This document shows, piece by piece, positions 37,911-54,955 of a stretch of DNA of 64,000 nucleotides; the first letter of the stretch is position 1; every line of letters begins with the position of its first letter. This DNA is from an uncultured bacterium (GTDB lineage Bacteria > Zixibacteria > MSB-5A5 > CAIYYT01): assembly GCA_963726455.1 (NCBI GenBank), contig CAVSCK010000004.1, forward strand, positions 896,001 to 960,000, written 5' to 3'. Below the pieces are notes generated by a model. That model did not search any database, was not told the origin of the DNA, and saw only the letters and a list, made by a program, of their open reading frames with translations. Position numbers and translations under genes: made by a program.

Positions 37911-39671
37911 TCAGAGTCGCAACTGTTTTTCCGCCAACTCGCGATAGAGGCACGACTTTTCCATGAGTTCCTGATGGCTCCCCTGGTCGATAATCGCCCC
38001 ATCCTTCAGAGTTAAAATTCGGTTGGCGCGTTGGACTGTTGCCAGGCGGTGCGCAATAATAATCGCCGTCTTGTCCACCAGTATCTTGTCCAGCGATTCC
38101 TGAATCAGTTGCTCGGATATCGAGTCGAGCGCGCTGGTCGCCTCGTCCAGAATCAAAATCGGAGGGTCTTTCAGCAGCGCCCGCGCCAGGCAAATACGCT
38201 GTTTTTCGCCGCCCGACAGAGTCACGCCCCGTTCGCCCACCGTACTTTCGTACCCATCCGGCAGTCCAGCGATAAAGTCGTGAATATTGGCGTTCCGGGC
38301 CGCGCGAATGACTTCCTCACGCGCCGCGTCTGGATTCGAGTAAGCGATATTCTCGGCGATCGTCGCCCTGAACAGCAGCGGATCCTGGTCTACCAGCGCA
38401 ATGTTGTCGCGCAGCGACTGCAGTGCAAGCTTGCGCAGGTCGACGTTGTCAATGCTGACGGTGCCCTGCTCGGGATCATAAAAACGCATGATCAGATTGA
38501 TTAACGTCGTCTTGCCGGAACCCGACGGCCCGACGATAGCGATTGTCTCGCCGGCATCAATATGCAAATTGAAGTGGTCGAACTTGAAGGCGCTGTCTGG
38601 GTACGTGAAGGTCACGTCCCGCATGTCGATTTCACCGTGCACCTTCGGAATTACAACCGGCTGCGGATCTTCTTCCACCGACGGCGGCATATCCAGGTAT
38701 TCGAAGACACGATCGACCGAGGCCATGGCCGCAGATATTTCCACTTTCGCAGACCCCAGAGATTGAACCGGACCGTATAGAAATGCCAGGTACATATAGA
38801 AAGCAAACAATTGACCGAGAAGCATTGATTTTCCGGCGACGAGATAGGAACCGAAACAGAGCACGATGATCGGCCCCAGATTCGTGACAATCATTACACC
38901 GTTGTATGCGATGGATCGAATCACACTGTACTTGACATAATATCCGGTCAATCCCGTCATAATCTGGTCGACTTTCTTGCGCTCTTCCTCTTCCTTGCCA
39001 AAGGCCTTGATAACCTTAAGCCCCACCAGCGACTCCTGAATACGCGCTGAAAGTTTCGCCACCGTTTCCTGCAGGCCACGTGCGGTGCGGTGAATCTTTC
39101 CGCCGAACAAGCTTGTCACCAATAGCGTAAGCGGCACGGGAATGATGGCAAACAGCGTCATCTGCCAGTTCAGGTACAGTATGTAGGCGAGCACTCCCAC
39201 CAGGAGGAGGATATTATTGATGATCGACAGCAACGTCGCCGCCAGCAAATCCTGAATGCGGGTCACGTCAGCCATGAACCGAGACATGACCTCACCGGTT
39301 TGCCGCTTCTGGTAAAAGCGCAATGACACGGTCTCCAGGTGCTTGAACAATTTCGAGCGAACGCCCGCGATAATGTTGGCGCCGATGTACCCGGCCAGAT
39401 AATCCCGCAGCCAGGAAAACAGGAATTGCGTCACGTAGATGCTGATCAGTATCAACGCAAAGCCGAGGATCGGCATGATATCAGGCTTCTGCCCTGCAGG
39501 AACTCGCCCGATAGCGGGAATGAGATCGTCGATTAGATATTCAAACGCGCGCGGGATCGCCAACACCAGAATATTGATGACAATCATCACGGCCAGCGTG
39601 ATCAATTCCAATGTCCAGTATGGTTTGAGGAACGGCCAGAGGCGTTTAGCTTTGCCGATATCGAGGATCAT
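37911..39671 (-). CDS. ABC exporter (fused TMD + NBD, no C39 peptidase domain), probable RiPP exporter
   Basis: Multi-TM domain, GPSGSGKTT, LSGGEKQR, ILDEATSALD; overlaps the end of the B12 radical SAM gene. Confidence 0.9.
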   Translation of the reverse strand: MILDIGKAKRLWPFLKPYWTLELITLAVMIVINILVLAIPRAFEYLIDDLIPAIGRVPAGQKPDIMPILGFALILISIYVTQFLFSWLRDYLAGYIGANIIAGVRSKLFKHLETVSLRFYQKRQTGEVMSRFMADVTRIQDLLAATLLSIINNILLLVGVLAYILYLNWQMTLFAIIPVPLTLLVTSLFGGKIHRTARGLQETVAKLSARIQESLVGLKVIKAFGKEEEERKKVDQIMTGLTGYYVKYSVIRSIAYNGVMIVTNLGPIIVLCFGSYLVAGKSMLLGQLFAFYMYLAFLYGPVQSLGSAKVEISAAMASVDRVFEYLDMPPSVEEDPQPVVIPKVHGEIDMRDVTFTYPDSAFKFDHFNLHIDAGETIAIVGPSGSGKTTLINLIMRFYDPEQGTVSIDNVDLRKLALQSLRDNIALVDQDPLLFRATIAENIAYSNPDAAREEVIRAARNANIHDFIAGLPDGYESTVGERGVTLSGGEKQRICLARALLKDPPILILDEATSALDSISEQLIQESLDKILVDKTAIIIAHRLATVQRANRILTLKDGAIIDQGSHQELMEKSCLYRELAEKQLRL

Positions 39672-41076
39672 TCTGCCAGTCCGGAAAATACTTATTGGCG
39701 GCAAATCGGAGCGCGCCTGGGGATAGCGTGTTTCTCATCGCTTGATCCCGCTGGGTCAACATCTCAAACCAAAGATCGGGATCGTTGGCAAGATCGTGCG
39801 ACGGAATATTGCGCCGGCAGTTTGTGTATTGATCTTCCTCCAGTTTCCACCAGTCGGGGCAGAGAATCTTGCTGCCGAATTGTTGCTCGAACCAGGCACT
39901 GTTGTAGTCCATCTCGCAGCCGGGGTAGTGCATATAGCCGAGACCGGCCCACATGAAAGTCGTTTCTTTGCGCTGCAATTCGGCGTCCATGAAGGCAAAT
40001 GTCTCATCAAGCGTTCGATGTGTCTCGCCGGGGTAATTAAAGATCATGTTTGCGCGGTGCAACACTCCGGCATCGGACAGCCGATGGCTGACCGTCTTGA
40101 CAATTTCGAGGTACTTTTCCGGCTGCTTAGTCTTCTTCATATAGCGTAGAATGTCGGGAGATCCGCTTTCAACACCCAATTCGATTTCCACCTTGAGTTT
40201 TGAGAACAGTGCAATATCCTCGGGATCAATATACTCCGGGCGAGTCTCGACAACAATCCAAAACTCCGGCTGCAGGTCGACGAGTCGGCGCAGGAATTCC
40301 TTGCGCCAGGCCGGACGCATCCCGAAACAGGCGTCACTTATTGCCACCGAGTAGAAATTGAATCGTTTGTAGGCGTCCAGAATATGCTTAATGGAATCCT
40401 CGGGACTATAGGCGCGCCATCGCCGATCTTTCAATCCCTCCATGCAGAATGCACAGTTAAACGGGCAGCCGCGCGACAGATACATATAGAAACTCTGCAC
40501 ACCTTCGGGTTTGTGTTCTGCCAGATGCTGTTCGAGCAGGTCGAGATTGAGCGGTACGAAGTGTTCGACGCCAAACATCGGCGCGTGCACAATCTTCGTT
40601 TCACTAGGACGGCCGTCGCGTTTGAGGTTGCCGGCAATTTCGCGGAGAATCAATTCGCCTTCGCCGCAAATCACGTAATCGAACAGCCGTTCTTCAGTCA
40701 GGAATTCATTGGGACGTGCCGAGGGATGATAGCCGCCGACTACAATCAGCTTATTGGGATACATTTCCCGGAAGATACGGGCGGTCTTCATGGTCGCCAG
40801 ATAAGATAAGCTGGTCCAGCAGGAAATGGCGAGAATGTCGCAGTCTTGTTTGGCGAAGAAGTCGCGGACTTTGCGTTCGTAGCGCTTGATCAAAGTCGGA
40901 CTGTTGGGCCGGCCGATCGAGTGCTCGAAATCGGCATAAGTAACAGGAAAGTATTGAGCCAGGTATGACGACAGCGTCAACTGTGACGCGCGAACATCGG
41001 GCTTGGCGATCCAATCAGGGTAATAGAAGCAGGATGGGTAAAGCACCAAAACCGACGGTGAAGTTGCAGCGGCCAA
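39646..41076 (-). CDS. Cobalamin-dependent radical SAM enzyme (class B, probable methyltransferase)
   Basis: B12-binding-domain motifs LIVVGGYHPS and DYVICGEGE; SRGCPFNCAFC; ELGVESGS. Confidence 0.88.
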   Translation of the reverse strand: MAAATSPSVLVLYPSCFYYPDWIAKPDVRASQLTLSSYLAQYFPVTYADFEHSIGRPNSPTLIKRYERKVRDFFAKQDCDILAISCWTSLSYLATMKTARIFREMYPNKLIVVGGYHPSARPNEFLTEERLFDYVICGEGELILREIAGNLKRDGRPSETKIVHAPMFGVEHFVPLNLDLLEQHLAEHKPEGVQSFYMYLSRGCPFNCAFCMEGLKDRRWRAYSPEDSIKHILDAYKRFNFYSVAISDACFGMRPAWRKEFLRRLVDLQPEFWIVVETRPEYIDPEDIALFSKLKVEIELGVESGSPDILRYMKKTKQPEKYLEIVKTVSHRLSDAGVLHRANMIFNYPGETHRTLDETFAFMDAELQRKETTFMWAGLGYMHYPGCEMDYNSAWFEQQFGSKILCPDWWKLEEDQYTNCRRNIPSHDLANDPDLWFEMLTQRDQAMRNTLSPGALRFAANKYFPDWQNDPRYRQS

Positions 41077-41081
41077 TCTAA

Positions 41082-42194
41082 CTAATGGCCTTCCGTTTGT
41101 GGCGGTTGGAACCTGGCCAGAAGTTGCGTGACAATCTCACTGTCCGGTGGCGCCGCGATGCCTTGTGCCTGCTCAATGCGGTACGTACAATACGGATTGT
41201 CCGCGCGGCAACCCGAGGCAGACACCGATGTTGTCGTGCAACCACCCCGGCACAGCGGCAGGTACTTGCAGTCGTGGCATGCGCCCGATGCAGTCTCGCG
41301 CGTAAACTTGCGGTTATATGCAAAGGCGTCCGGGTTATTCCAGATCTCCTTCAATGATTTCTCGCGAATGTTGCCTTCGACGAACTCCTCCTGCATGGAC
41401 AAGCATCCCTTGACGTTGCCGTTGGACTCAATCCCCACAACTCGCGTGCCGGCATAGCAACCCATATACACACCACCCTCCCAGAGTTTGGTCCCGAGTT
41501 GTCCGAAGTAGCCGATGTTTTCGCCGACGTCGAGATGCAGGCCGTTCTTACGTTCCTTGATTTCGATCAGCTTACTGATCATTTTCGGATAATCGGCAAG
41601 ACGCAGCACGAGTTCGTTGCTGTCTTTCATACGTCCGGTTGACGTGCAAAGCTGCACCCGCCATTCGGGACAACCGATGTCCACCAGAATATTATAGATG
41701 TCGTCAAGTTCTCCAAGGTTGATGTTAGACACTTGCGTCACGGCACAGAAATTGTGCCCCTTGCGCTTCGACAATTGCTTCAATGCACTCACGGCGCCCT
41801 TGAAACTGTCCTCGCGCTGTCGAATGTAATTGTGCGTCTTCTCGGTACCGTCGAAGCTGACTCCCACATTGGTCATCGGGACACTTGCCATATCGTTGGC
41901 TACCGCTTCTGTCAACAACAACCCGTTCGTTACCAATAGCGGCTTCATCTTACGCTCTTTGATCCGCTTGGCGAAAACCAGCCAATCCTCTCGCATCAGT
42001 GGTTCACCACCGGAGAGAGCGATATTGTCGGTGCCCATCTCTGCGAGTTCATCGATCAATTTTAGCCCCTCGTCGGTGGTCAGTTCGTCCGCTCTTCTCT
42101 TGCCGGCAGCCGTGCCGCAGTGAAGGCAGCGCATGTTGCAGGCGAAAGTTATTTCCCAGACGACTGCGTGGGGATAGAATTTGAACTCGGTCAT
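41082..42194 (-). CDS. Radical SAM/SPASM enzyme, PlpX/PcpX-like (putative tyramine-excising splicease)
   Basis: VVWEITFACNMRCLHCG..AG.RR.DELTT.E; GC.AG...GIE.NG.VKGC.S; C..C....LCRGGC; NPYC.YR. Confidence 0.8.
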   Translation of the reverse strand: MTEFKFYPHAVVWEITFACNMRCLHCGTAAGKRRADELTTDEGLKLIDELAEMGTDNIALSGGEPLMREDWLVFAKRIKERKMKPLLVTNGLLLTEAVANDMASVPMTNVGVSFDGTEKTHNYIRQREDSFKGAVSALKQLSKRKGHNFCAVTQVSNINLGELDDIYNILVDIGCPEWRVQLCTSTGRMKDSNELVLRLADYPKMISKLIEIKERKNGLHLDVGENIGYFGQLGTKLWEGGVYMGCYAGTRVVGIESNGNVKGCLSMQEEFVEGNIREKSLKEIWNNPDAFAYNRKFTRETASGACHDCKYLPLCRGGCTTTSVSASGCRADNPYCTYRIEQAQGIAAPPDSEIVTQLLARFQPPQTEGH

Positions 42195-43541
42195 GTCTTC
42201 TCCTTGGCTTTAGAAGTGGCTTGCTGCTGACGAGATCGCGCAATGATGTCAAGCATGGGTGTGAGATTATGCTTCCAACTCTGGCAGATTTCAGTGCCCT
42301 GCAATCCCCGGTCGACGCGCTGAGCCGGACAGCCACCCATGCAGAGCGGCAAGATGTCGCAACTCCTGCACTCGCTCGTCCTCGAACGGATCGAAACTGA
42401 ATAATCTGGTGAAATTGGGATGCTGAAAATCAATGTAGTTACGAATATTGCCCATCGATCTTTCCGGATCTCCGACATAATTCCAACAGCGGCAGATATT
42501 CCCCTCCGGATCGACGATAAAGCCGTTAATATGCTGGGCCATGCAATATATCGCGCTCGGACTCGGCAATTTCTGGACCGCAAATCCTTCGTCCAGCAAC
42601 TGGCGATAGAAACCGATTTCCACCTCGGAGAATTGCACGGTATCAAAGCATGTGTCAGCTATCGCGGCGCACGTCATTGATGACGGTTCAAGCTGGCCGA
42701 AGTAGACCGCTATTCGCTGCTGCAGTCCGGCCGCCTTAAGTTGCCCCAGCAATTCGGACATGGCCGCGAGGTCAACCGTCTTGTCAACGTTGACGCGGAC
42801 CGATATCATCATCTTGCTCGAAGCATATTTGACATTATCCAAAATCGTCTGGAACGAATCTTTGCCGTTCTTCAACGGCCGCCGCTGATTGTGCAGGCGC
42901 TCGGGACCATCGAGCGTGACCTGGCAAATCGAGACGTGCAGTTCCGCCAGTTTGTCCACCACATCCTTGGTCATTAGATATCCGTTGGTGACAATCGAAG
43001 ACGTGTAGGCGAACTGCTTCTCGCGCCCGAGATCGATCAGACTCTCCGCCAGATCCTCTATGATGTCCATCGCCAGTAGCGGTTCACCACCGTACCAATC
43101 CACATCAACCTTGTCGAGTGACTTTGCCTGCTTGTCGACGAAGCCGATGATGCCTTCCACGATCTCCGGGCTCATCTTGCCCTTCTTGTTGCCTTCGAAG
43201 CAATACGGGCAGGCCATATTGCAGGCCATTGTCGGGGCAATCACCAGTCCCAGCGTCCGTCGGTCGTAGCGCGTGCTTTGATGCAGAAATTTCAGCCATT
43301 GGACTTCATTCTCCGAATCAGGAAGCATGAACTTCCCAAATTCAAGCTGCTTCTGCAGTTCGGTCTCCGCGGCATTGAGTGTCGAAGTATCACCACCATT
43401 AGTGCTGCTGCTCGCCAGCCGCAGATACGTCTGGTAGTTTGCCTCTGTCATGAGAGCTAACGCGCCCGTGCGCGCATTAAACGCGATGTAGTACCCCTGT
43501 TGCCAGGGTCGAAAGAGGTTATAGAGGGAGACTTTACTCAT
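42191..43541 (-). CDS. Radical SAM/SPASM peptide maturase with an apparent frameshift near 42375
   Basis: IAPTMACNMACPYCFE, WYGGEPLL, QVTLDG; the SPASM tail ECRSCDILPLCMGGC lies in the shifted frame (ORF 42191-42646), whose stop overlaps the next ATG. Confidence 0.85.
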
Positions 43542-43834
43542 ACGGCGACACGCTTCTTCATTACATGTGATGCGTTACGAATCGTGACCGACTAATCAGT
43601 AGAACCTCATGCTAGTTCGAAGCGCCGAATTCTGATCGATTGCCTGATAGCCCAGTGAAAGCATCAAATAAATACTCGTTAGAGCGACTTTTGTCAAGTC
43701 GTATTTGAGCTCTGAGCGATGACCGAGTTTCGTTTTGCTCGGATGCATAATACTTTGAACAACAATCTTTGTGCGGCAACCGGCAGGCGTCAGAAGAGGC
43801 GTGTCCACGAGTGAAAGTGATCGTCTTGGCGGGT

Positions 43835-43864
43835 AAGAAAGAGGGAGGGGACTAAGCCCCTCCC
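43835..43864 (-). terminator. Intrinsic terminator after precursor A1
   Basis: GGGAGGGG/CCCCTCCC 8-bp stem followed by TCTTTCTT, 3 nt after the stop codon. Confidence 0.75.
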
Positions 43865-43867
43865 GAT

Positions 43868-43987
43868 TCATGTCCGACTCAGATAGGACTCGGGCTTAAT
43901 TCCGTAGCACGGATATACGACACCCTTGCACTTGAAGAACGTGCAAGCGTCGATGCCCGGGTTTTGTGGATCAATCAAATAGATCAT
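43868..43987 (-). CDS. RiPP precursor peptide A1, 39 aa: MIYLIDPQNPGIDACTFFKCKGVVYPCYGIKPESYLSRT
   Basis: Manual translation; AGGAGG RBS 5 nt upstream; paralog at 44439-44543; Cys residues and XYG motif; upstream of three radical SAM genes. Confidence 0.88.
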   Translation of the reverse strand: MIYLIDPQNPGIDACTFFKCKGVVYPCYGIKPESYLSRT

Positions 43988-44019
43988 TAAAACCTCCTGG
44001 GGTTAAGTGAAGGGTCACT

Positions 44020-44066
44020 GAAGGGCCGAAGCCCTTCCGTATCAATGAAACTACCTTTTGATACGT
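44020..44066 (-). promoter_or_regulatory. Conserved double-hairpin 5' leader element (copy 1)
   Basis: CGTATCA..TGATACG stem followed by GAAGGGC-TTCG-GCCCTTC; homologous to 44582-44623. Confidence 0.55.
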
Positions 44067-44389
44067 CTATAACACTTACGCTCTGCCCGTTTCACGGGCA
44101 GGTACAGGATAGTTCCTCCGAGTGGCAGGCGGGTCAAACACCTGCTTTGGTTCACTAAACGTCTGGGAAGCGCGTCGATTTCATGCCGAAGACGACTCAG
44201 TACCGCTTACAAAGTATGATAAATTAAGGACTTCAACAATTGCTCGCCGCTATGATAGCATCTTTTGAATGTCAAAGTCAAGAGTTTTTGGAATGAAACA
44301 TTACCAAAAGTAACCGGATAATCGTTAAGACACACCAAACTTGCAGTCTGAACATTTGTCCGGCTTGATGGGAACGGCGAACAAGCAGT

Positions 44390-44421
44390 CGCGGCGCGGA
44401 GAACGTATCCTTCGCGCCGCG
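44390..44421 (-). terminator. GC-rich hairpin after precursor A2 (terminator or mRNA stabiliser)
   Basis: CGCGGCGCG/CGCGCCGCG 9-bp stem 17 nt downstream of the stop; weak U-tract. Confidence 0.55.
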
Positions 44422-44438
44422 CAGAACACTTTGGAAAT

Positions 44439-44543
44439 CTAGGCCGGGTCCACTCCGTACATCGGATAGAACCTGGGACTGCACAGTTTCTTGAGCGTGC
44501 AACCGCTGATCGATGTGTCCTGGGGATCGATCAAATAAATCAT
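44439..44543 (-). CDS. RiPP precursor peptide A2, 34 aa: MIYLIDPQDTSISGCTLKKLCSPRFYPMYGVDPA
   Basis: Manual translation; AGGAGG RBS; first 8 residues identical to A1; shared CT..K and YPxYG motifs. Confidence 0.88.
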   Translation of the reverse strand: MIYLIDPQDTSISGCTLKKLCSPRFYPMYGVDPA

Positions 44544-44581
44544 CGGGATTCCTCCTATGATGAATTTGGAGTTTTGCTGAC

Positions 44582-44623
44582 GTGGGCCTGCGGCCCACCC
44601 CGTATCATGAACCTCTGATACGT
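44582..44623 (-). promoter_or_regulatory. Conserved double-hairpin 5' leader element (copy 2)
   Basis: CGTATCA..TGATACG stem followed by GTGGGCC-GCA-GGCCCAC. Confidence 0.55.
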
Positions 44624-44807
44624 TTCTTGCTTATGCGACCTCGTTCGTTTGCCACCTGTCGAAAACTAGGACATCCAGTCTTTCGATGCAATAGCCAATT
44701 CTCGACAATCCATCCTGGCTAGTGAGACGGCCTACTACACCTGCTGAAACAAGCAATGTCCGCTCCGGTGCGAAACTATAGAGGTAACAATTCGATCAGT
44801 TGAAAGA

Positions 44808-44836
44808 ATATTACGATTTGCCCGCCCATTTGTCAA
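44808..44836 (-). promoter_or_regulatory. Sigma70-type promoter upstream of precursor A2
   Basis: TTGACA-N17-TAATAT on the minus strand. Confidence 0.6.
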
Positions 44837-44903
44837 TGAAAATGAATCTTGGTAAGACGATGAACTGAACGTCGACCGCTAGCGTGTCGGGCATGTTGCG
44901 CAG

Positions 44904-47549
44904 CTAAAGCACTGGATGCTCTTGATCTGCCCGTTGGCCCGCATTCCTGAGCAACTCAGTATTGATTGCCTCCGCTAATTCGCGGCGGGAATATGGCTTT
45001 CTGACAAACGCCGTGACTCCCAGAGTCTGCAATTTACTGACTCTGTCGGTCGTCGCATATCCACTGACGAGAATTGCCCTTTGCTGTGGATGTATCTTGA
45101 GGATTGCCTCGTAAGTGTCTAGTCCGTCAAAATCCTTTTCCAGAATCATGTCCAGTAAGACAAGGTCCACCGACCGGCCAGAGAGATAAACAACGGCCTC
45201 GTGGCCGTTAGTAACCAGTTCCACCTCGTAACCAAGACTTCCGAGGATTTGTCTTGCTATCTCCCTCTGTTCCGAGTCATCCTCCACCACCAGAATCTTC
45301 ACCGGTGTTGGCCCCGGCTCATAGTTCTTCTGTTCAGCAGGGCACGATGTCATAATCGGTGCCGATGTCGCCGGGAAGAACAGTAAGAACTCTGCGCCCC
45401 TACCCGGCTCCGAAAGGACGTCATAGTACCCTTTGTGATCCTTCACTATGCCATGAACAACTGCCAGACCCAGTCCGCTGCCGCTGGCGCCCATCGGCTT
45501 GCTTGAATAATAGGGATGAAAGATCTTATACACGTCCTCTGGATTTATCCCGACGCCCGAATCCTTCACGCTCACGACTACATATTCACCCGGTTCGATT
45601 CCGTTGAATCCACTGGGAAGTTGGGTATACTGGCCGGAGTACGTTCTTATCGTCAATTCGCCCCGGTCGCCGATAGCTTCGAATGCATTCACCACCAGAT
45701 TCATGATGGCTTTCATCAGATGCGATGCCGAACCACTGATATTCGGCAAGGTGTCCGGTAGCGCAACATTCACGGAAATGTTAGGGTGATTTTCCCTCAG
45801 CGAGAGGAAATTCGGTGACTCCAGATATTGTCTAAGCACTTCGTTGACATCAGTCGGCTTGGTTTCGTATCGACCCCGTCGCGCCAGCGCCAGCAGATCC
45901 TGAATAACATCAGCGGCGTCTCTCGCCGCCTTCGACATGATTTCCAGTTGGCGCCGATGCGGACTATCCGACGGCAGTTTCATCATTATCAACTCAGGGT
46001 AAGCCACCAGTGGCCCCAGAATATTGTTCAGGTCGTGCGCTACCCCGCCGGCCAGCAACGCCAATGATTCTGCACGCTCCGCTTTCTCCAACCGGCGCTG
46101 CAAGATTTCCTGCTGCTCGGCTTCGTGCAGCCGCAATGTGATATCGCGCGCGACACCGACGATGCCGGCAACCTTCCCGCGCTCGTAGTACGGCTGTTCG
46201 TTGACTTCCAGTACCAGCCGATGCTTCTGCTTGTGGTATATCTCCACCTGATACGGCGGGAATGTGATTCCCTCTTCCATCGCCCGTTCCGTAAAGTCGA
46301 TCACCTTGGCATTGGCAGGACTGTCGGTCAGGTAGCTGGTATAGTGCCGCATCCACTCCTGCGGCGTATATCCGGTCACGGCCTCCACCGAATGCGAGAC
46401 GTAGTGGAAGATTCCCTGAGTATCGTGGCGATATATGAAGTCGCTCGTATTCTCCAGCAGCACCCGTTGCTCGGCAGCCAGTTCTGACACCTTTGTCGCC
46501 GCATCTTTCAATGCTTCTTCCGTGTGCTTGCGCTCGACTATCTCATCTACCAGACTGCTGTTCTGATGGAAGAATTGGTCAATGAGATAGGCAATCAGCC
46601 CGAACTCTCCCCCCTCCATTTTTAGATTCTGAATATACTTTGCGTCGTCTTCCGACAGTGCGCGCGATATAGAAGCAAGCGGCCGCGATACCCAGAATCG
46701 CAGCGTATACCAGCCCACCAGGATCAGCAAACTGCAAAAGACGATAATCACCGCCGTGCGGGTATTAACTGCGCGATTGTATTCAGCCAGGAATCCCGAT
46801 CGACTTTCACTTCTGACGACCGTCACGGGAAAACTATTCCAACCGTACAGCGTATCCGCCGTGCGCACTTGTGCTTCATGCAGGTCAGACATCCATTGCG
46901 TAAGAGGCGAGTTCCCGATCTCCACCAGCGTGATGTTGGCCTCCGACAGCCGTTCCAATTCCCTCACATAATCTGATGACCACAAGCGCCCAACCAGCAA
47001 ATAGCCCACTGGCGGGGTGCTCCGTCCCTCATCCGCACTCGGTTGAATCGGTGCGCCACACATTTCCATGGGTCCGAGCGGCGTCGACACGAAGAAATGA
47101 GGAAACATGCCGTTGGCGAACAGGTGTTCACTGTTAGCGGTGAGAAATGGCTCCATTGCCACAACTTCGCCCGCGACCTTGCACACTGCGTAGACCTGCG
47201 CCATATCGGTTCGGAATACCCAGGCAGCAGTGGCATCATACGTTTCAATGCCCACATCTATGTTTTCGTGCGCCCAGCCGCTATCCGACGTCTTCACGAA
47301 AGTAACCATGTCGTCCCAGAAACTATAGTCGTAGGCAAGTGTCACAAGCGATGTGCCGTTTAGTTCGATGATCTTGTGTAGTAGCTTCTGTTCGCTGGTT
47401 TCCTGGTCAACCAGAATTGATTTTGCGCGGTCTGTTTCAGAATGATGCAGTACGATCATACCGCAAAGCAGTATCCCGACCAGTACGATCAGCAGGAATA
47501 ACAGACGTGTCTGCACTGTGGCCACGATAGTCCCCTGTTGCCTTCGCAT
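44904..47549 (-). CDS. Hybrid sensor histidine kinase (CHASE4-like sensor, PAS, HisKA, HATPase, receiver)
   Basis: Two TM helices around DYSFWDD; H-box AGGVAHDLNNIL; N-box NLVVNAFEA; DSGVGI; GSGLGL; receiver motifs ILVVEDD, LLDM, KPY. Confidence 0.92.
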   Translation of the reverse strand: MRRQQGTIVATVQTRLLFLLIVLVGILLCGMIVLHHSETDRAKSILVDQETSEQKLLHKIIELNGTSLVTLAYDYSFWDDMVTFVKTSDSGWAHENIDVGIETYDATAAWVFRTDMAQVYAVCKVAGEVVAMEPFLTANSEHLFANGMFPHFFVSTPLGPMEMCGAPIQPSADEGRSTPPVGYLLVGRLWSSDYVRELERLSEANITLVEIGNSPLTQWMSDLHEAQVRTADTLYGWNSFPVTVVRSESRSGFLAEYNRAVNTRTAVIIVFCSLLILVGWYTLRFWVSRPLASISRALSEDDAKYIQNLKMEGGEFGLIAYLIDQFFHQNSSLVDEIVERKHTEEALKDAATKVSELAAEQRVLLENTSDFIYRHDTQGIFHYVSHSVEAVTGYTPQEWMRHYTSYLTDSPANAKVIDFTERAMEEGITFPPYQVEIYHKQKHRLVLEVNEQPYYERGKVAGIVGVARDITLRLHEAEQQEILQRRLEKAERAESLALLAGGVAHDLNNILGPLVAYPELIMMKLPSDSPHRRQLEIMSKAARDAADVIQDLLALARRGRYETKPTDVNEVLRQYLESPNFLSLRENHPNISVNVALPDTLPNISGSASHLMKAIMNLVVNAFEAIGDRGELTIRTYSGQYTQLPSGFNGIEPGEYVVVSVKDSGVGINPEDVYKIFHPYYSSKPMGASGSGLGLAVVHGIVKDHKGYYDVLSEPGRGAEFLLFFPATSAPIMTSCPAEQKNYEPGPTPVKILVVEDDSEQREIARQILGSLGYEVELVTNGHEAVVYLSGRSVDLVLLDMILEKDFDGLDTYEAILKIHPQQRAILVSGYATTDRVSKLQTLGVTAFVRKPYSRRELAEAINTELLRNAGQRADQEHPVL

Positions 47550-49074: not shown

Positions 49075-52000
49075 ATGAACCAATGTAGAATTCAGCGTTG
49101 CCTCGTGATTCTGATTCTCGCCGTGCTCGCGATCTTTGTGTCGTTTGCGTACGCGGAGAAGAAGATTCCCAGCCCGATTGTAACTAACGGATCGGCTCCC
49201 GCCAATCCCAATTGGGACCTGAAAGCCCAGCAACAAGGCGATCAGTCGCATGATCCTGCCATCCAGAAAGACGAATGGGACGTTCCCAATCCGAACGATG
49301 CCGCAATTGCCCAGTCACCGGAAGGCGGTCTCGCTGTCGGCGATGATTGCTCCAATCCCATTTCGATTTCACTGCCGGCCCAACTGCCATACAGCGATCT
49401 GAGCCAGACAACTTGTGGCCGGCTGAACAACTATGACGCCACCTGTCTCGGAAACTATGACGGCGGCGAGGACATCATTTACAAAGTCGATGTCACTACC
49501 TCCACTATGATCAACATTACGCTCAACCCCAAGGGAACTACCTATACCGGTTTCCTGGTGGATGATGCCTGTCCGCCTGATCCTTCGACGTGTATCGCCA
49601 AGAGCACCAACTCCTCTTCGACGGCACACACCATAAAGAATCTCACGCTGGCCCCAGGCACCTATTACATCATGGTCGACACCTGGCCATCACCCGCCTG
49701 TATCCCCAGCTTCGATCTTTCAATAATTGCGTCTCCGCCACCGCCGGTTAATGACAACTGCGCCAGTGCCACGCCGATCGGCGACGTTTCCGGCCTGGCA
49801 TTTTCTACGCTGTACGCCAGTATCGATGGCCCCGGCGGCTTCATCTATTCGCCTAACATCTGGTATTGCTACACCGCTTCTTTGACCGGCGTGGCCACCG
49901 CCACCCTTTGCGGCTCGATGTTTGATACCAAGATTCGCGTGTGGAACGGTTGCACTTGCCCGCCCACTTCCCTACTGGCTCAAAACGACGACGGCTGTTC
50001 CGGTTATCCCACCGGCAACACTTATGCCTCAAAGTTGTCGTTCGACGTAATTGCCGGCCAAACATACCTCATCGAGGTAGGCGGCTACAGTCCCTCGCAA
50101 ATGGGCGACGGCACGATGACCATTACTTCCATCGTCCCCCCAATCGGTGATGCCTGCGCCGTGCCAATCGTTGTTGGTATGTCGCCATCCGCTTTGCCGT
50201 TTACCATCGCTAACCAGTACACTTGCGGCAGAAGCGACAACTACAACTCTACCTGTCTGGGCAGCTACGACGGCGGTGAGGATATCATCTACCGCATAGA
50301 CGTCACTCAGCCCACCTATGTCGATGTCACACTGAATCCGAAAGGAACAAGCTATACCGGATTTCTTATCGATGACGCCTGTCCGCCTGATCCAACGACC
50401 TGCTTATATGTCAAGACCAACAGCGGCAGTGCCGCCTATGGCCTGACGAATGTCTTTCTCGCCGTCGGATCGTACTACCTTATGGTCGATACCTATCCGA
50501 GCCCGGCTTGCGTTCCGGACTTCGACCTCACTTTCTCAGTACCGGTTGGCGCTCCGATGAACGATAACTGCGCTACCGCTACCGCAATCGGTAATGTCAC
50601 GGACCTGGCCTTCTCGACCGCGTCCGCCACATTCGACGGCCCCGGCGGCTATATCGTATCGCCGAACGTCTGGTACTTGTACACAGCTCCCTGCACCGGC
50701 TCGGTCGACATAAGTCTCTGTAATTCCAATTTCGATACCAAAATGCGTGTGTGGAATGGAAGTACTTGCCCGCCCACGACGGTCGCGGCTCAGGACGATG
50801 ACGGCTGCAATACTCCCAACGGCCTTGCATCGATGGTGAGTTTCGCCACGGTTGCAGGCAGCCAGTACCTGATCGAAATCGGCGGTTACGGCCAAGCCAC
50901 CGGCAATGGCTTCCTGACTACCAATTGCACGCCGGCGCCGCCAAACGATAATTGCCAGGACGTCGTTCCGGTTGACCTGTTTGCGGGTTCGCCGCTTACC
51001 TTCACCGGCGACAATCGTGGCTCCACGAATGACTGTTCGTTGCTTCTGCGCGCACAGGCCTGGCATGCCTTTACGATTACCGAGTGCATGAACGTCACCA
51101 TTGACTTCTGTTCGACAACTCCTGCCTTCGGTAGCGTGTACGTCGTCGTTATGCAGGGTTGCCCGTGCGGCAGCTACACATACGGTTCCTACGACTGGGC
51201 TGCCTGCGGCGATGGCAACGTCACCATGACGTATAGCGCCCTGATGCCGGGAACTTATTACATTCCTGTCCTGCTCGATCCGGCTTTAAACGCCGCAGGG
51301 CCGTACACGATTCACGTCAATGCTTCATCCGTGGCGTCCATGTGTTCTGCCGGCGCCACCACTTGCGATGAATACATCAGCAACGTCCAGGTCGGCACAA
51401 TCGACAACAGTTCATCCTGCGGCACGGGCGGATACACCGATTACACTTCCATCTCTACCGAGATGATCAAGGGTGTCGGCTATCCGATAACCGTAACCAA
51501 CGGCCTGCCGTACTCTCAGGATGCTTGTGGCATCTGGGTCGATTGGAATGGTGATTTCTGCATCGACGCCGGTGAGCAAGTAGCGGTCTCCGGCAACCCG
51601 GGTGGCGGCCCCTATACAGCAGTGATCAATCCTCCCTGCAATATTGCGACCGGCCCGAAATTGCTGCGCATTCGTATTCTCTACTACTCTGTACCGACCC
51701 CTTGCGGCCTGAGCGAGTATGGAGAAGTCGAAGACTACACTATTAATCTTGTTGATCCGCCAGCCGTTCCTCCGACTGCGGTCGCCATCCCTGATCCGCA
51801 GTTTGTGTATTACGAATATGCGGTCGATCCGGTCACGGACTCCTTCTACATCGGTAATTTTGCCGGTGGACACACTTTCGCGGATATCAATCTCGAGAGC
51901 GTTAAAGTCAACGGCCTGACTCCGGCCAACGTAACCGTACTTCCGAGTTATCCCGGATTCTACTGCCCCGTTGTTTGCGCCACGATGCCCTGTGCTGCCT

Positions 52001-52371
52001 TCCTGGCGCCGCTGGGCGTCCTGTACGATACGACGTCTCACACCTACCACGTATCCTGGGCATACAACGATGCAACTCGGGATTCAATTGCCGGAACTGT
52101 GACCCTGATTGGCCATACTTCCGCCTCGCCAGGTCAGTTTATTGCGCCTGCCGGAATCGTAGTCGTCCCTGGTGACTTCGATTTGTCGGGCCAGATTGAT
52201 ATCAGTGACCCAGTCGCGATGATCGGATACATTTTCAACAGCCAACCGGGACCGCAGAATCTCAGCATTGGTGATGTCAACTGCTCAGGTGGTTTCGACA
52301 TTTCCGACGTTGTCTACATGATTCAGTATATTTTCTCGGGTGGTTCCACCCTTTGTAACGCCGGGAAGTAG
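49075..52371 (+). CDS. Large secreted Cys-rich repeat protein with GEVED and C-terminal dockerin-like domains
   Basis: Signal peptide; duplicated ~270-aa unit; GEVEDY motif; twin GD.D/N.SG..DISD.V.MI.YIF repeats. Confidence 0.85.
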   Translation: MNQCRIQRCLVILILAVLAIFVSFAYAEKKIPSPIVTNGSAPANPNWDLKAQQQGDQSHDPAIQKDEWDVPNPNDAAIAQSPEGGLAVGDDCSNPISISLPAQLPYSDLSQTTCGRLNNYDATCLGNYDGGEDIIYKVDVTTSTMINITLNPKGTTYTGFLVDDACPPDPSTCIAKSTNSSSTAHTIKNLTLAPGTYYIMVDTWPSPACIPSFDLSIIASPPPPVNDNCASATPIGDVSGLAFSTLYASIDGPGGFIYSPNIWYCYTASLTGVATATLCGSMFDTKIRVWNGCTCPPTSLLAQNDDGCSGYPTGNTYASKLSFDVIAGQTYLIEVGGYSPSQMGDGTMTITSIVPPIGDACAVPIVVGMSPSALPFTIANQYTCGRSDNYNSTCLGSYDGGEDIIYRIDVTQPTYVDVTLNPKGTSYTGFLIDDACPPDPTTCLYVKTNSGSAAYGLTNVFLAVGSYYLMVDTYPSPACVPDFDLTFSVPVGAPMNDNCATATAIGNVTDLAFSTASATFDGPGGYIVSPNVWYLYTAPCTGSVDISLCNSNFDTKMRVWNGSTCPPTTVAAQDDDGCNTPNGLASMVSFATVAGSQYLIEIGGYGQATGNGFLTTNCTPAPPNDNCQDVVPVDLFAGSPLTFTGDNRGSTNDCSLLLRAQAWHAFTITECMNVTIDFCSTTPAFGSVYVVVMQGCPCGSYTYGSYDWAACGDGNVTMTYSALMPGTYYIPVLLDPALNAAGPYTIHVNASSVASMCSAGATTCDEYISNVQVGTIDNSSSCGTGGYTDYTSISTEMIKGVGYPITVTNGLPYSQDACGIWVDWNGDFCIDAGEQVAVSGNPGGGPYTAVINPPCNIATGPKLLRIRILYYSVPTPCGLSEYGEVEDYTINLVDPPAVPPTAVAIPDPQFVYYEYAVDPVTDSFYIGNFAGGHTFADINLESVKVNGLTPANVTVLPSYPGFYCPVVCATMPCAAFLAPLGVLYDTTSHTYHVSWAYNDATRDSIAGTVTLIGHTSASPGQFIAPAGIVVVPGDFDLSGQIDISDPVAMIGYIFNSQPGPQNLSIGDVNCSGGFDISDVVYMIQYIFSGGSTLCNAGK

Positions 52372-52571: not shown

Positions 52572-53831
52572 CTACGAATTCTTCTTCTCGACGGCGCGGA
52601 TTTTGACGTACAACAGCAACGCCAGAAGCGCGATTATCAAGAGCGAAATCACGAGCCCCTCACGCCGGAAATAATATTCCTTCACAAGTCCCGTCGATTT
52701 GCTGCTCACCGCCTTCGCCTGGACGACTCCATCCGCAGCCAACGTCCGTACCGAATCCAGCGTGAACGCATGCACCAGCGAGCGCGACTTGACCCCTATC
52801 TGCTCGACTTCATGCAGCGCAAATTCCTCATCCGTCGTCATCATCTCGCGCTCTTTGGCCTGATTCAATTCCTGCCGCGCCGAATCGGTCGCCATTCGCA
52901 GGTTTCCCAAGAGCAACGACAGACTGTCGATCTCATACGACGCAGCATTCTTGTCGCTTTCGCTGTGGCAATTTCCGCAAATCTGGTCGGAGCCAAAGCC
53001 AATGAACGCATCCGATGGCTTCTTAATGCCGTGATTGCTATGACAGGTCTCGCACATTGGCAAACCCTGCTCGGCGAATGCCGCCTTATGCGGAGACGAC
53101 TCGTATAATCGCCCCTCAATGGCATGGCAAGTTCCGCACACCGCCGACAGGGAAGCTACTTCAGGTGGCGCCGCGCCATGGTTGCCATGGCAATCATTAC
53201 ACGCTGGCGCGCTTTGATCCTGTTTTTCGATCAGCGCTACGCCGTGAACTGACGTCCGATACAGCTCTTCCTGGTCGGTTGGAATGCCATACTCCTTCAT
53301 GTATTCTTTATCGCTGTGGCAGGTGCCGCAGGTTTTTGGCACGTTCATCGCGTACGTCGAAGCATAGGGCGACTTTGCATCGCCGATCGAGTGCGCCCGA
53401 TGGCATGACACGCACGTGGCAACCTTTCTGTCCTTGTCCGCGAACAGGCGTTTCCCATGAATTGAAGTCTTGTACTTCTCCAACTGGTCGACAGGCAGAC
53501 TCGGATTATGCTGATGCATGTACACTGGATCGGAATGACACCGCGCACAGAAGTTCGGGATATCGAGCCGGTCAGGAACACCGCGATAACCTTTGCTGGC
53601 TTTAACCGCATCCATATCCTCAAGCGTCGGATCGCCGCCGTGACAATCCGCGCACATCAGTCCGTTCTGCGAGTGAACGTCGCGTGCAAACTGATGCGCC
53701 GGCCCGTCGGCATCTTCTGTCTCCATATGACAACTCACGCATTGATTGGCCGGTGCTGCCTGTCCGGCCAAATACGCCGGTGTCAGAGTCAGGAACGCCA
53801 AAAGTGCGAAAGCAGTAGCCGCGTATCTCAT
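52572..53831 (-). CDS. Membrane-anchored multiheme cytochrome c (9 CxxCH motifs)
   Basis: Signal peptide MRYAATAFALL; CVSCH, CADCH, CARCH, CVSCH, CGTCH, CNDCH, CGTCH, CETCH, CGNCH; C-terminal TM helix. Confidence 0.92.
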   Translation of the reverse strand: MRYAATAFALLAFLTLTPAYLAGQAAPANQCVSCHMETEDADGPAHQFARDVHSQNGLMCADCHGGDPTLEDMDAVKASKGYRGVPDRLDIPNFCARCHSDPVYMHQHNPSLPVDQLEKYKTSIHGKRLFADKDRKVATCVSCHRAHSIGDAKSPYASTYAMNVPKTCGTCHSDKEYMKEYGIPTDQEELYRTSVHGVALIEKQDQSAPACNDCHGNHGAAPPEVASLSAVCGTCHAIEGRLYESSPHKAAFAEQGLPMCETCHSNHGIKKPSDAFIGFGSDQICGNCHSESDKNAASYEIDSLSLLLGNLRMATDSARQELNQAKEREMMTTDEEFALHEVEQIGVKSRSLVHAFTLDSVRTLAADGVVQAKAVSSKSTGLVKEYYFRREGLVISLLIIALLALLLYVKIRAVEKKNS

Positions 53832-54955
53832 TTGATTATGTACCCCAAAATCGTCATCACAATTATGAACAGAACTACCAGAACGCCAAACCCGGTCCAC
53901 CGTTTCGAACGCTGATTGCGCACGGACTTCTTATCCAGGAACGGAACCAGTGCCCAGAGAATTCCGCCGATCGCGAAAAAGAGCATTCCGAACTGCTCAC
54001 CCTCAATGAACAAGATCTTGGCCGGCAGAAGTTTTAGCGATTGAAACGCGAACATGAAATACCATTCCGGCCTGATCACATTCGGCGGCGGCGCCGTTGG
54101 GTCGGCCTTGTCTCCGAGCGGCCAGTGCACCATCCCGATACCGTCTGGGAATATCACCGCCAGCACCATCAGCACTTCCAGCGCAACCAGCCAAACCAGC
54201 AAATCGCGATACAGAAAATTCGGGAAGAACTTCTGATATTTCTTCTTATTGGCGTCCAGATGCTGCCATTCCAGCGGCTCACTCATTCCCTGCCGCTGCA
54301 CGAATATCAGATGCAGCGTCAAAACAATCGAAAACAGCGCCGGCAATATCGCTACATGCAATCCAAAAAATCGGCCGATTGTTGCGCCGGTGACATCCTC
54401 ACCGCCTCGCACAATGACCAACAAGTAATGTCCGATTACCGGCATCGATCCGATCATTCCCGTTCCAACGCGCGTGGCAAAGAACGAAAGCTGATTCCAT
54501 GGCAGCAGATATCCTGAGAACCCGAATGTCAACGCCAATCCAAGTAGCGCAATTCCCGTCAGCCAGGTCAACTCTCTCGGCTTGCGATACGCCTGCGTGA
54601 AGAAGGTCGTAAACATGTGCAGAAACGCGCTCAGGATCATCAGATTCGCCGACCATGAGTGCACCGATCTCATCAGCCAGCCGAACGTCACATCTGACAG
54701 AATAAACCTTACCGACTCGTACGCCGAATCGGATCCCGGTCGATAGTACATGAGTAGCAGAATTCCCGTGGCAATTTGCACGAGAAAGAAAAACAGCGTG
54801 ATGCCACCTAGATAGTACAGCGCCGAATGCCCGTGCTGCGGCACGACCTTGTGCGCCATGTACGTGCGCAGATCGTCGATCTTGAGGCGGCTATCCAGCC
54901 AATGATAAATCCGCGTTCCCCATTTGGTCTTGTCAACCGAAGCCGATGAGTTCAT
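53828..54955 (-). CDS. Cytochrome b of a Rieske/cytochrome b complex
   Basis: GWLMRSVHSWSA, HMF, FSGYLLPW, RFFGLHV...LH, PEWY motif. Confidence 0.93.
   Translation of the reverse strand: MNSSASVDKTKWGTRIYHWLDSRLKIDDLRTYMAHKVVPQHGHSALYYLGGITLFFFLVQIATGILLLMYYRPGSDSAYESVRFILSDVTFGWLMRSVHSWSANLMILSAFLHMFTTFFTQAYRKPRELTWLTGIALLGLALTFGFSGYLLPWNQLSFFATRVGTGMIGSMPVIGHYLLVIVRGGEDVTGATIGRFFGLHVAILPALFSIVLTLHLIFVQRQGMSEPLEWQHLDANKKKYQKFFPNFLYRDLLVWLVALEVLMVLAVIFPDGIGMVHWPLGDKADPTAPPPNVIRPEWYFMFAFQSLKLLPAKILFIEGEQFGMLFFAIGGILWALVPFLDKKSVRNQRSKRWTGFGVLVVLFIIVMTILGYIIK

Follow-up and report, generated by a model that had tools for sequence, protein, structure and literature searches.

What is encoded by two very short open reading frames (ORFs), termed A1 and A2, that lie directly upstream of an operon for radical S-adenosylmethionine (SAM) enzymes in a 64,000-nt stretch of an uncultured bacterium (assembly GCA_963726455.1, contig CAVSCK010000004.1, positions 896,001 to 960,000; hereafter the window)? 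The original prediction, made from the letters of this stretch and their translations, had read both as precursors of a ribosomally synthesised and post-translationally modified peptide (RiPP). This reading is borne out by conservation at the protein level, by tandem copies with variable Cys-rich middles, by the synteny of the operon, and by homology to the curated precursor peptides of the Clo7bot system, and we hold with good confidence that A1 and A2 are translated RiPP precursors which are matured by the adjoining operon. The general features of RiPP precursor loci are present, i.e., a small peptide gene beside genes for modifying enzymes and a transporter, and a conserved leader part combined with a variable core. 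Most likely, the product would be a RiPP with thioether cross-links and with a second modification at a conserved PxYG block.

A1 (39 aa) and A2 (34 aa), both located on the minus strand, are paralogues, as had been proposed. In a single pairwise BLASTP comparison 18 of 33 positions are identical (E 6e-11), and the pattern MIYLIDPQxxxIxxCTxxK(x)CxxxxYPxYG[IV]xP, which had been put forward for both peptides, is correct as quoted. Their first eight residues are the same, and the four codon differences in this segment (ATC/ATT, ATT/ATC, CCA/CCC, and CAA/CAG) are all synonymous. Approximately 4 of the 24 sites of these codons are synonymous, and a chance placement of all four differences at such sites has a probability on the order of 1e-3. 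The claim that these differences indicate selection on the protein is thus supported for the pair, and it extends to the third-position variation of the whole family described below. Both genes are preceded by an AGGAGG Shine-Dalgarno sequence at the short distances listed in Table 1, again in agreement with the original prediction. The statement that both ORFs lie below the threshold of ORF calling is only partly right, since A1 itself is a called 39-aa protein in the protein collection and 195 family representatives are present in a library of predicted proteins. A word-indexed protein search with the 44-aa stop-to-stop frame of A1 returned A1 as its sole match; this is due to the limit of the word index and not to an absence of relatives, as the exhaustive profile search revealed the family. 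Two longer ORFs which overlap or adjoin the peptide genes, 44278..44598 (106 aa) and 43596..43871 (91 aa), were rejected as candidates: tblastn against 130 other loci gave no hit for either of them, compared to 60 hits for A1 and 65 for A2.

The six-frame profile search of genomes that had been suggested was carried out for 285 genomes of the phylum to which the window belongs. With a first profile built from A1 and A2, matches were observed in 146 of these genomes at E<=1, many of them with E-values from 1e-5 down to 1e-14 and frequently as tandem groups. Twenty loci, one per genome and picked among the best-scoring of the 146 matching genomes, were enlarged to up to 20 kb. From their 46 small-ORF rows, 39 were combined with A1 and A2 into an alignment of 41 peptides (A3), with the exception of two duplicates (L033 and L034:3669) and five weak or divergent rows (L034:5359, L037:10270, L043:12671, L043:12945, and L049:9377). 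The A3 consensus is composed of M-I-Y-L-I-D-P, approximately seven variable residues, a Cys-rich stretch, and P-L-Y-G-V-P; M1, P7, two cysteines, P26, and Y28 are invariant in all 41 sequences. A2 matches the two family profiles with 3.8e-24 and 5.1e-16, and A1 matches both as well. At E<=1e-4 the A3 profile detects members in 86 of the 285 genomes, corresponding to 68 of the 198 high-quality genomes and to 40 of the 130 genera, with up to nine matches per genome. These matches are confined to 8 of the 20 families of the phylum, and none was found in the other 12. An exhaustive search of 1.84 billion cluster representatives with the same profile yielded 195 representatives at E<=0.001, including 13 at E<=1e-10; among the 150 of these that were listed, the length ranges from 29 to 50 aa, and 144 align from residue 1. 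The family, hitherto uncatalogued, is present in approximately 30% of the species of a single uncultured phylum, which is probably Zixibacteria.

For the codon analysis, 77 distinct family ORFs were used. The codon of Pro7 shows entropies of 0.10, 0.10, and 1.83 bits at its first, second, and third position, respectively, with all four Pro codons in use, and Leu4 is encoded by six different codons. PxYG is present in 76 of the 77 ORFs; its Pro and Tyr vary only at the third codon position, and the same applies to Gly in 75 of 76. Translation starts at ATG in 63 ORFs, at GTG in 13, and at TTG in one, and a Shine-Dalgarno-like motif precedes every ORF, predominantly (51 out of 77) as AGGAGG. Because this conservation is family-wide, the ORFs are not chance ORFs: the genes of the A1/A2 family are real and under selection at the protein level.

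In a set of 222 unique peptides the N-terminal motif is present without exception and Px-Y-[GS] in all but two. Each peptide contains 2-6 cysteines, and 339 of the 513 Cys-Cys spacings are of the CxxxC type. The seven N-terminal residues are conserved, the Cys-rich middle is variable, and 3-21 residues follow the Px-Y-[GS] match, with the Tyr never being C-terminal. Consequently, the proposed layout of a conserved leader and a variable core stands as far as the N-terminal leader is concerned, although this leader comprises only approximately 7 residues; it has to be amended on the C-terminal side, where PxYG forms a second invariant block, so that the layout is conserved-variable-conserved.

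The genomic context of the family is highly uniform. Of the 20 enlarged loci, 18 have between one and seven peptide genes that immediately precede, in the same orientation, a series of genes encoding a radical SAM maturase (rSAM1), a second radical SAM enzyme (rSAM2), in part of the loci a B12-binding radical SAM enzyme, and an ATP-binding cassette (ABC) exporter. The window conforms to this arrangement, with A1 and A2 directly upstream of rSAM1-rSAM2-B12-ABC on the same strand. In 8 of the 18 loci rSAM2 is followed by the B12 enzyme gene and in 6 directly by the ABC gene. An independent route, in which an alignment of rSAM1 homologues (A5) was scanned against one genome per species, led to 28 close loci with 47-64% identity, below which the identity falls sharply to 36% or less. 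Sequence upstream of rSAM1 is available in 25 of the close loci, and family peptides occur there in 24. Homologues near related radical SAM genes, on which the original prediction had been made to depend, were therefore found by both routes. The rSAM2 gene immediately follows rSAM1 in all 28 close loci and in none of 51 distant, Clo7bot-like loci. The B12 enzyme is encoded in 15 of the close loci, is demonstrably lacking in 8, and is cut off in 5; judged by eye for the 20 enlarged and the close loci, its presence shows no clean correlation with the peptide subtype. All-against-all clustering of the ORFs of the 20 loci detected no further conserved neighbour, only shadow ORFs of the core genes.

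Among the NCBIfam models, rSAM1 has its best match, over the full length, in the Clo7bot maturase family TIGR04334, with scores of 299 bits (window copy) and of 349 and 334 bits (two intact homologues). TIGR04463 follows as second family (261-293 bits compared to a cut-off of 525), and further matches to CefB, geopeptide, FlmE/OhkG, and PapB maturases are all below the respective cut-offs. The SPASM domain model TIGR04085 matches as well, and across 18-19 homologues neither the CxxxCxxC nor the SPASM cysteines vary. A profile of rSAM1 homologues has CteB as its best solved relative (E 2e-25), aligned from CteB residue 14 and thus including the N-terminal domain. An AlphaFold model of an intact rSAM1 homologue (mean predicted local distance difference test 84.7, predicted template modelling (TM) score 0.83) displays strands at residues 2-32 and helices up to residue 91, followed by the radical SAM barrel. 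It superimposes on CteB over the whole length, N-terminal domain included, with TM scores of 0.64-0.68, ahead of anSME, which lacks a RiPP recognition element (RRE). According to this model, rSAM1 has the RRE, radical SAM, and SPASM architecture of sactipeptide and ranthipeptide maturases. A predicted complex of rSAM1 residues 1-388 with A1, computed with alignments, scored 0.19 relative to a mark of 0.32 and was not used in either direction. rSAM2 has no N-terminal domain, its CxxxCxxC motif beginning at residue 19; its best NCBIfam matches are the uncharacterised families TIGR03913 (248 bits) and TIGR04103 (242 bits), and it is more distantly related to the NirJ/AhbD, MftC, WgkB, PqqE, and SkfB families. 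The best solved relative of the B12 enzyme is TokK, and by homology this enzyme, which is dispensable for the family, is probably a methyltransferase.

The 51 distant loci, which derive from Clostridia, Collinsella, and others and share 31-36% identity in rSAM1, contain small ORFs starting with M-K-[YF]-I-[VI]-x-P followed by cysteines. Against TIGR04333, the model of the Clo7bot Cys-rich peptides (cut-off 31 bits), five of six peptides from such loci score 42.6-54.6 bits, whereas none of four peptides of the window family gave any hit at E<=10. A comparison of the family with Clo7bot-type peptides by hhalign resulted in a probability of 93% and E 3.2e-7 over 24 columns, which cover the N-terminal motif and the first cysteines. 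Both groups have in common short Cys-rich peptides of approximately 29-50 aa (31-43 in the loci checked), the N-terminal motif M-x-[YF]-[IL]-[IV]-x-P, CxxxC-spaced cysteines approximately 7 residues after this motif, and a frequent tandem arrangement beside an RRE-radical SAM-SPASM enzyme. They differ in that rSAM1 reaches only 299-349 bits against the TIGR04334 cut-off of 600, at 31-36% identity, and in that the Clo7bot-like loci lack rSAM2 (0 of 51) and the PxYG block in their peptides (alignment of the Clo7bot type). As judged by sequence comparison, the system does not belong to Clo7bot but is its distant sister.

Relations to better known systems are more remote. CteB, the thermocellin-type thioether (sacti/ranthi)peptide synthase (PDB 5WGG/5WHY), is the best solved relative of rSAM1 by sequence and by fold, but only 17-18% of the residues are identical in the structural alignment, and its precursor is unrelated. 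The CteB system comprises one maturase, not two plus a B12 enzyme. The PapB-type ranthipeptide maturases (NF047865) match the radical SAM/SPASM core of rSAM1 with 116-147 bits, below the cut-off of 340, and the match begins only after the N-terminal domain of rSAM1; substrates of this type contain repeated Cys-x3 motifs. A lead for rSAM2 comes from the aromatic cross-linking SPASM enzymes, among them WgkB of tryglysin synthesis: rSAM2 matches NF050035 with 130.6 bits, which is far from the cut-off of 650. The target of WgkB is an aromatic-Gly-X motif (W-G-K) that resembles the Y-G-[VI] of the present family. Membership in the SCIFF family was rejected: the peptides have no NCBIfam match, and rSAM1, with 79-97 bits, falls short of the TIGR03974 cut-off of 425. 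PMC13692751 describes CrpC, a TIGR04463 member composed of RRE, radical SAM, and SPASM domains, as using its RRE and installing thioether cross-links on a Cys-rich substrate. According to the same paper CrpC acts on large Cys-rich proteins, which have a conserved N-terminus of 47 residues, in contrast to the 34-39-aa peptides of the window.

A full-text literature search retrieved no paper on Clo7bot, none linking Zixibacteria with radical SAM RiPPs or with the term ranthipeptide, and none on OhkG/FlmE radical SAM enzymes; of TIGR04333, TIGR04334, and TIGR04463 only the last was found mentioned. The family accessions and the words "Zixibacteria" and "botulinum" are absent from the main text of PMC10288494, whose supplementary compendium of approximately 15,000 radical SAM proteins could list these enzymes.

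From the CteB-like architecture of rSAM1, the thioether chemistry of CrpC, and the CxxxC pattern of the peptides we infer a minimal leader and thioether formation by rSAM1. The N-terminal M-I-Y-L-I-D-P (consensus M-x-[YF]-L-[IV]-[DE]-P) would act as a very short leader that docks as a strand on the RRE of rSAM1, and rSAM1 would then install thioether cross-links from the core cysteines, most of which are CxxxC-spaced. As rSAM2 co-occurs only with PxYG peptides, it may be assigned to the invariant P-x-Y-G-[VI] block, most plausibly with a cross-link in which the tyrosine takes part. The B12 radical SAM enzyme, encoded in about half of the clusters, might add methyl groups, and the ABC transporter presumably exports the product. 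We likewise infer leader binding, export, and the biological role, along with these chemical steps, from the composition of the cluster and from its relatives.

The flanks of the two peptide genes suggest how the peptides could be produced in excess. A downstream hairpin had been claimed for both genes and is found at both. The one after A1 is terminator-like; the one after A2 has a weaker T tail and was not listed by the terminator scan. The z-scores relative to shuffled sequences are modest for both (-1.6 and -1.2 for A1 and A2, respectively). Upstream, a pair of hairpins sits 35-75 nt before the start of A1 as well as of A2. For the family of genomes to which the window belongs, 13 upstream regions were compared, which besides the window stem from L019, L025, L026, L050, L052-L056, and L061; in these, the first stem CGTATC...GATACG is invariant with a loop of 8-24 nt, and the second stem contains two covarying pairs, one of which changes from G-C to A-U in 6 of the 13 regions. 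A search of 43400-45000 against Rfam gave no family match; blv_FSE appeared below threshold (17.4 bits compared to 34) and was taken as chance. The position of the TTGACA box aligns between A1, A2, and both copies in the same-genus locus L050. Due to the promoter-like site of its own approximately 265 nt upstream of each gene, A2 and A1 are expected to form separate transcription units with long 5' untranslated regions (UTRs). Hairpins behind precursor genes, which favour precursor over enzyme transcripts, are common in RiPP clusters. In the present locus, each precursor gene combines a promoter-like site and a long structured 5' UTR with a strong Shine-Dalgarno sequence and a trailing hairpin, which together may raise the level of precursor mRNA over that of enzyme mRNA.

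Table 1. Positions of the peptide genes, the adjoining operon, and their putative signals in the window
Feature	Position	Strand	Remarks
A2, 34-aa precursor peptide gene	44439..44543	minus	First in the direction of transcription; ORF and family profile match
A1, 39-aa precursor peptide gene	43868..43987	minus	ORF and family profile match; called protein
rSAM1, predicted RRE + radical SAM + SPASM maturase	42191..43541	minus	Split by a frame change at ~42372-42375
rSAM2, second radical SAM/SPASM enzyme without N-terminal RRE	41082..42194	minus	Start overlaps the frame-restored rSAM1 stop
B12-binding radical SAM enzyme, probable methyltransferase, optional	39646..41076	minus	Library matches
ABC exporter, permease + ATPase, no peptidase domain	37911..39704	minus	Kept downstream in related loci
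AGGAGG Shine-Dalgarno sequence of A2	44551..44556	minus	7 nt before ATG
AGGAGG Shine-Dalgarno sequence of A1	43993..43998	minus	5 nt before ATG
Terminator-like hairpin after A1	43843..43864	minus	8 bp, 7 G-C pairs, T-rich tail; terminator scan and fold
Hairpin after A2, possible attenuating terminator	44390..44421	minus	9+4 bp, weak T tail; fold only
Two adjacent 5'-UTR hairpins before A2	44582..44622	minus	CGTATC...GATACG stem, then G+C stem
Same two 5'-UTR hairpins before A1	44020..44065	minus	Fold and alignment
Promoter-like TTGACA-17-TAATAT	44808..44836	minus	~265 nt upstream of A2
Promoter-like TTGACT-18-TATCAT	44252..44281	minus	~265 nt upstream of A1, downstream of the A2 hairpin

Several observations weigh against A1 and A2 being precursors that the adjoining operon matures. 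Peptides of the A1/A2 family have no match in Pfam or NCBIfam even at E<=10. Synteny is broken in L035 and L037, where peptides occur without the enzymes nearby; these peptides are satellite copies, and the respective genomes hold further copies on other contigs. In detail, the precursor genes at L035:7435-7542 and L037:9965-10377 have no radical SAM gene within approximately 3 kb downstream, and the second copy in L037 is devoid of the PxYG block. Conversely, L062 (L062:1-9871) contains a complete rSAM1-rSAM2-B12-ABC series with no adjacent precursor gene; its upstream gene includes a masked stretch, and three family peptides are present elsewhere in the same genome. ORF clustering detected no conserved protease in the 20 loci and the ABC protein has no peptidase domain, which leaves the removal of the leader unexplained. 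The link between rSAM2 and PxYG is a single, phylogenetically confounded co-occurrence. Finally, the rSAM1 gene of the window is disrupted. Its first frame covers 42291..43541, and a change of frame at approximately 42372-42375 shortly precedes the last SPASM motif (CxxCx5Cx3C). A second close copy of rSAM1 is missing from the genome, in which the other paralogues are 36% and 31% identical to an intact homologue.

This disruption gives rise to the alternative that has to be taken most seriously, namely that the family is real but that A1 and A2 are relics whose maturation ceased in this organism with a genuine frameshift of rSAM1. The 59 rSAM1 codons behind the frame change continue in another frame to 42191, with a stop that overlaps the rSAM2 start, and a search of the whole genome recovered rSAM1 in two pieces (query 1-415 and 391-448) compared to 446-485 aa in intact homologues. 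The frame change does not fall in a homopolymer, and uninterrupted ORFs are seen for the other genes of the region, so there is no sign of a generally error-prone assembly; these points, together with the lack of a close second copy, fit a true mutation. Against it, a single-base assembly error remains a possible source of the shift, the other genes of the system (A1, A2, rSAM2, B12 enzyme, and ABC exporter) are free of interruptions, and the same-genus relative L050 carries an intact rSAM1. We regard the relic state as a substantial possibility, though one that falls short of being probable; the pathway may be inactive in this genome unless the shift is an assembly error. The two paralogues are both of the RRE-type radical SAM/SPASM kind: L131 (G000:C1:35471-36757; 36% identity) is followed by another radical SAM gene, and L132 (G000:C3:649146-650402; 31% identity) has a 37-40-aa ORF with a GGGAGG site just after it. 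A quick scan beside both revealed no peptide of the MIYLIDP type.

The remaining alternatives concern the family as a whole. One is that the peptides serve, like PqqA for pyrroloquinoline quinone or MftA for mycofactocin, as the source of a peptide-derived redox cofactor, here built around Tyr-Gly, and not of a secreted cross-linked peptide. The Tyr and Gly of PxYG are indeed invariant or nearly so, and among the rSAM2 matches are the maturase of mycofactocin (TIGR03962, 162.6 bits) and PqqE (82.8 bits), with PqqE also among the solved relatives. These scores are nevertheless far below the cut-offs of 265 and 381, respectively. The target Tyr of MftA is located at the C-terminus and that of PqqA in an E-x3-Y motif. 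In the present family the Tyr is never terminal, being followed by the 3-21 residues mentioned above. The hypervariable middle, up to nine profile matches per genome, and one to seven copies per locus are unlike a cofactor precursor, and in the 20 loci an ABC exporter is conserved but no partner dehydrogenase or other cofactor gene. Hence we consider a cofactor precursor very improbable.

Equally little credence is given to the assumption that the peptides are unmodified small Cys-rich proteins, e.g., metal-binding ones, which merely share an operon with radical SAM enzymes. In its favour are the 2-6 cysteines per peptide and the predicted character of any modification. However, the maturase has, to judge from its model, a CteB-like substrate-recognition (RRE) domain, the closest curated maturase families all pair with small Cys-rich peptides, and the synteny is near-universal (18 of 20 and 24 of 25 loci). 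Scarcely credible is the idea that the ORFs are regulatory leader peptides without a function of their own, whose translation and hairpins would control read-through into the radical SAM operon: the ORFs do lie upstream of the operon, with a hairpin after each and conserved hairpins before, yet protein conservation over the whole length and across the phylum is not seen in attenuation leaders, 2-7 tandem copies with promoter-like sites of their own are unlike such leaders, a common CxxxC Cys-rich pattern is combined with an invariant C-terminal block, and the family is homologous to curated precursor peptides (Clo7bot).

Precursors matured by the adjoining operon are thus retained as the best explanation of A1 and A2. 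It is tempting to speculate further on a new phylum-wide RiPP class in which an approximately 7-residue leader is sufficient for recognition by the RRE, a hybrid scaffold arises from two SPASM enzymes, with CxxxC thioethers formed by rSAM1 and a Tyr cross-link across Gly in P-x-Y-G-[VI] formed by the lineage-specific rSAM2, methylation by the B12 enzyme is optional, and the peptide is exported at full length without a dedicated protease, possibly as a signal. In this complete form the proposal is doubtful. A CHASE4 hybrid histidine kinase is found beside the cluster in this genus.

This hybrid histidine kinase (CHASE4, PAS, HisKA, HATPase, and receiver domains; 44904-47549, minus strand) is situated directly upstream of A2. 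Four of the 20 enlarged loci (L042, L047, L049, and L050) and three of the 28 close loci (L052, L057, and L078) have a histidine-kinase-like hit of any identity in the vicinity of the cluster, and apparent orthologues occur only in L050 (59% identity), L052 (57%), and L049 (45%). The kinase was not counted as a member of the system. In L043 (L043:11108-13058) a second rSAM1 paralogue, which adjoins a complete cluster, has no rSAM2 of its own and is accompanied by two small ORFs that keep M-D-Y-L-[IV]-D-P and lack PxYG; it is possible that this locus represents a natural dissection of the two modifications. Further away in the window, 49075-52371 (plus strand) encodes a 1098-aa protein that looks secreted and has internally repeated domains according to its translation, and 52572-53900 (minus strand) encodes a 442-aa protein with many CxxCH motifs, by eye a multihaem cytochrome c, with a cytochrome b-like gene beside it.

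For the radical SAM RiPPs, the finding adds a large precursor family, whose members form at least 195 clusters at the level of 50% identity. With a family profile, annotation pipelines could call its 29-50-aa genes consistently. The compact cassette of four to five genes is suited to heterologous expression, and it offers a natural test of the minimum length of a leader that is recognised by an RRE and of the role of an RRE-less second SPASM enzyme at an invariant PxYG. Owing to the link to the uncharacterised Clo7bot system, the solution of one of the two chemistries would inform both.

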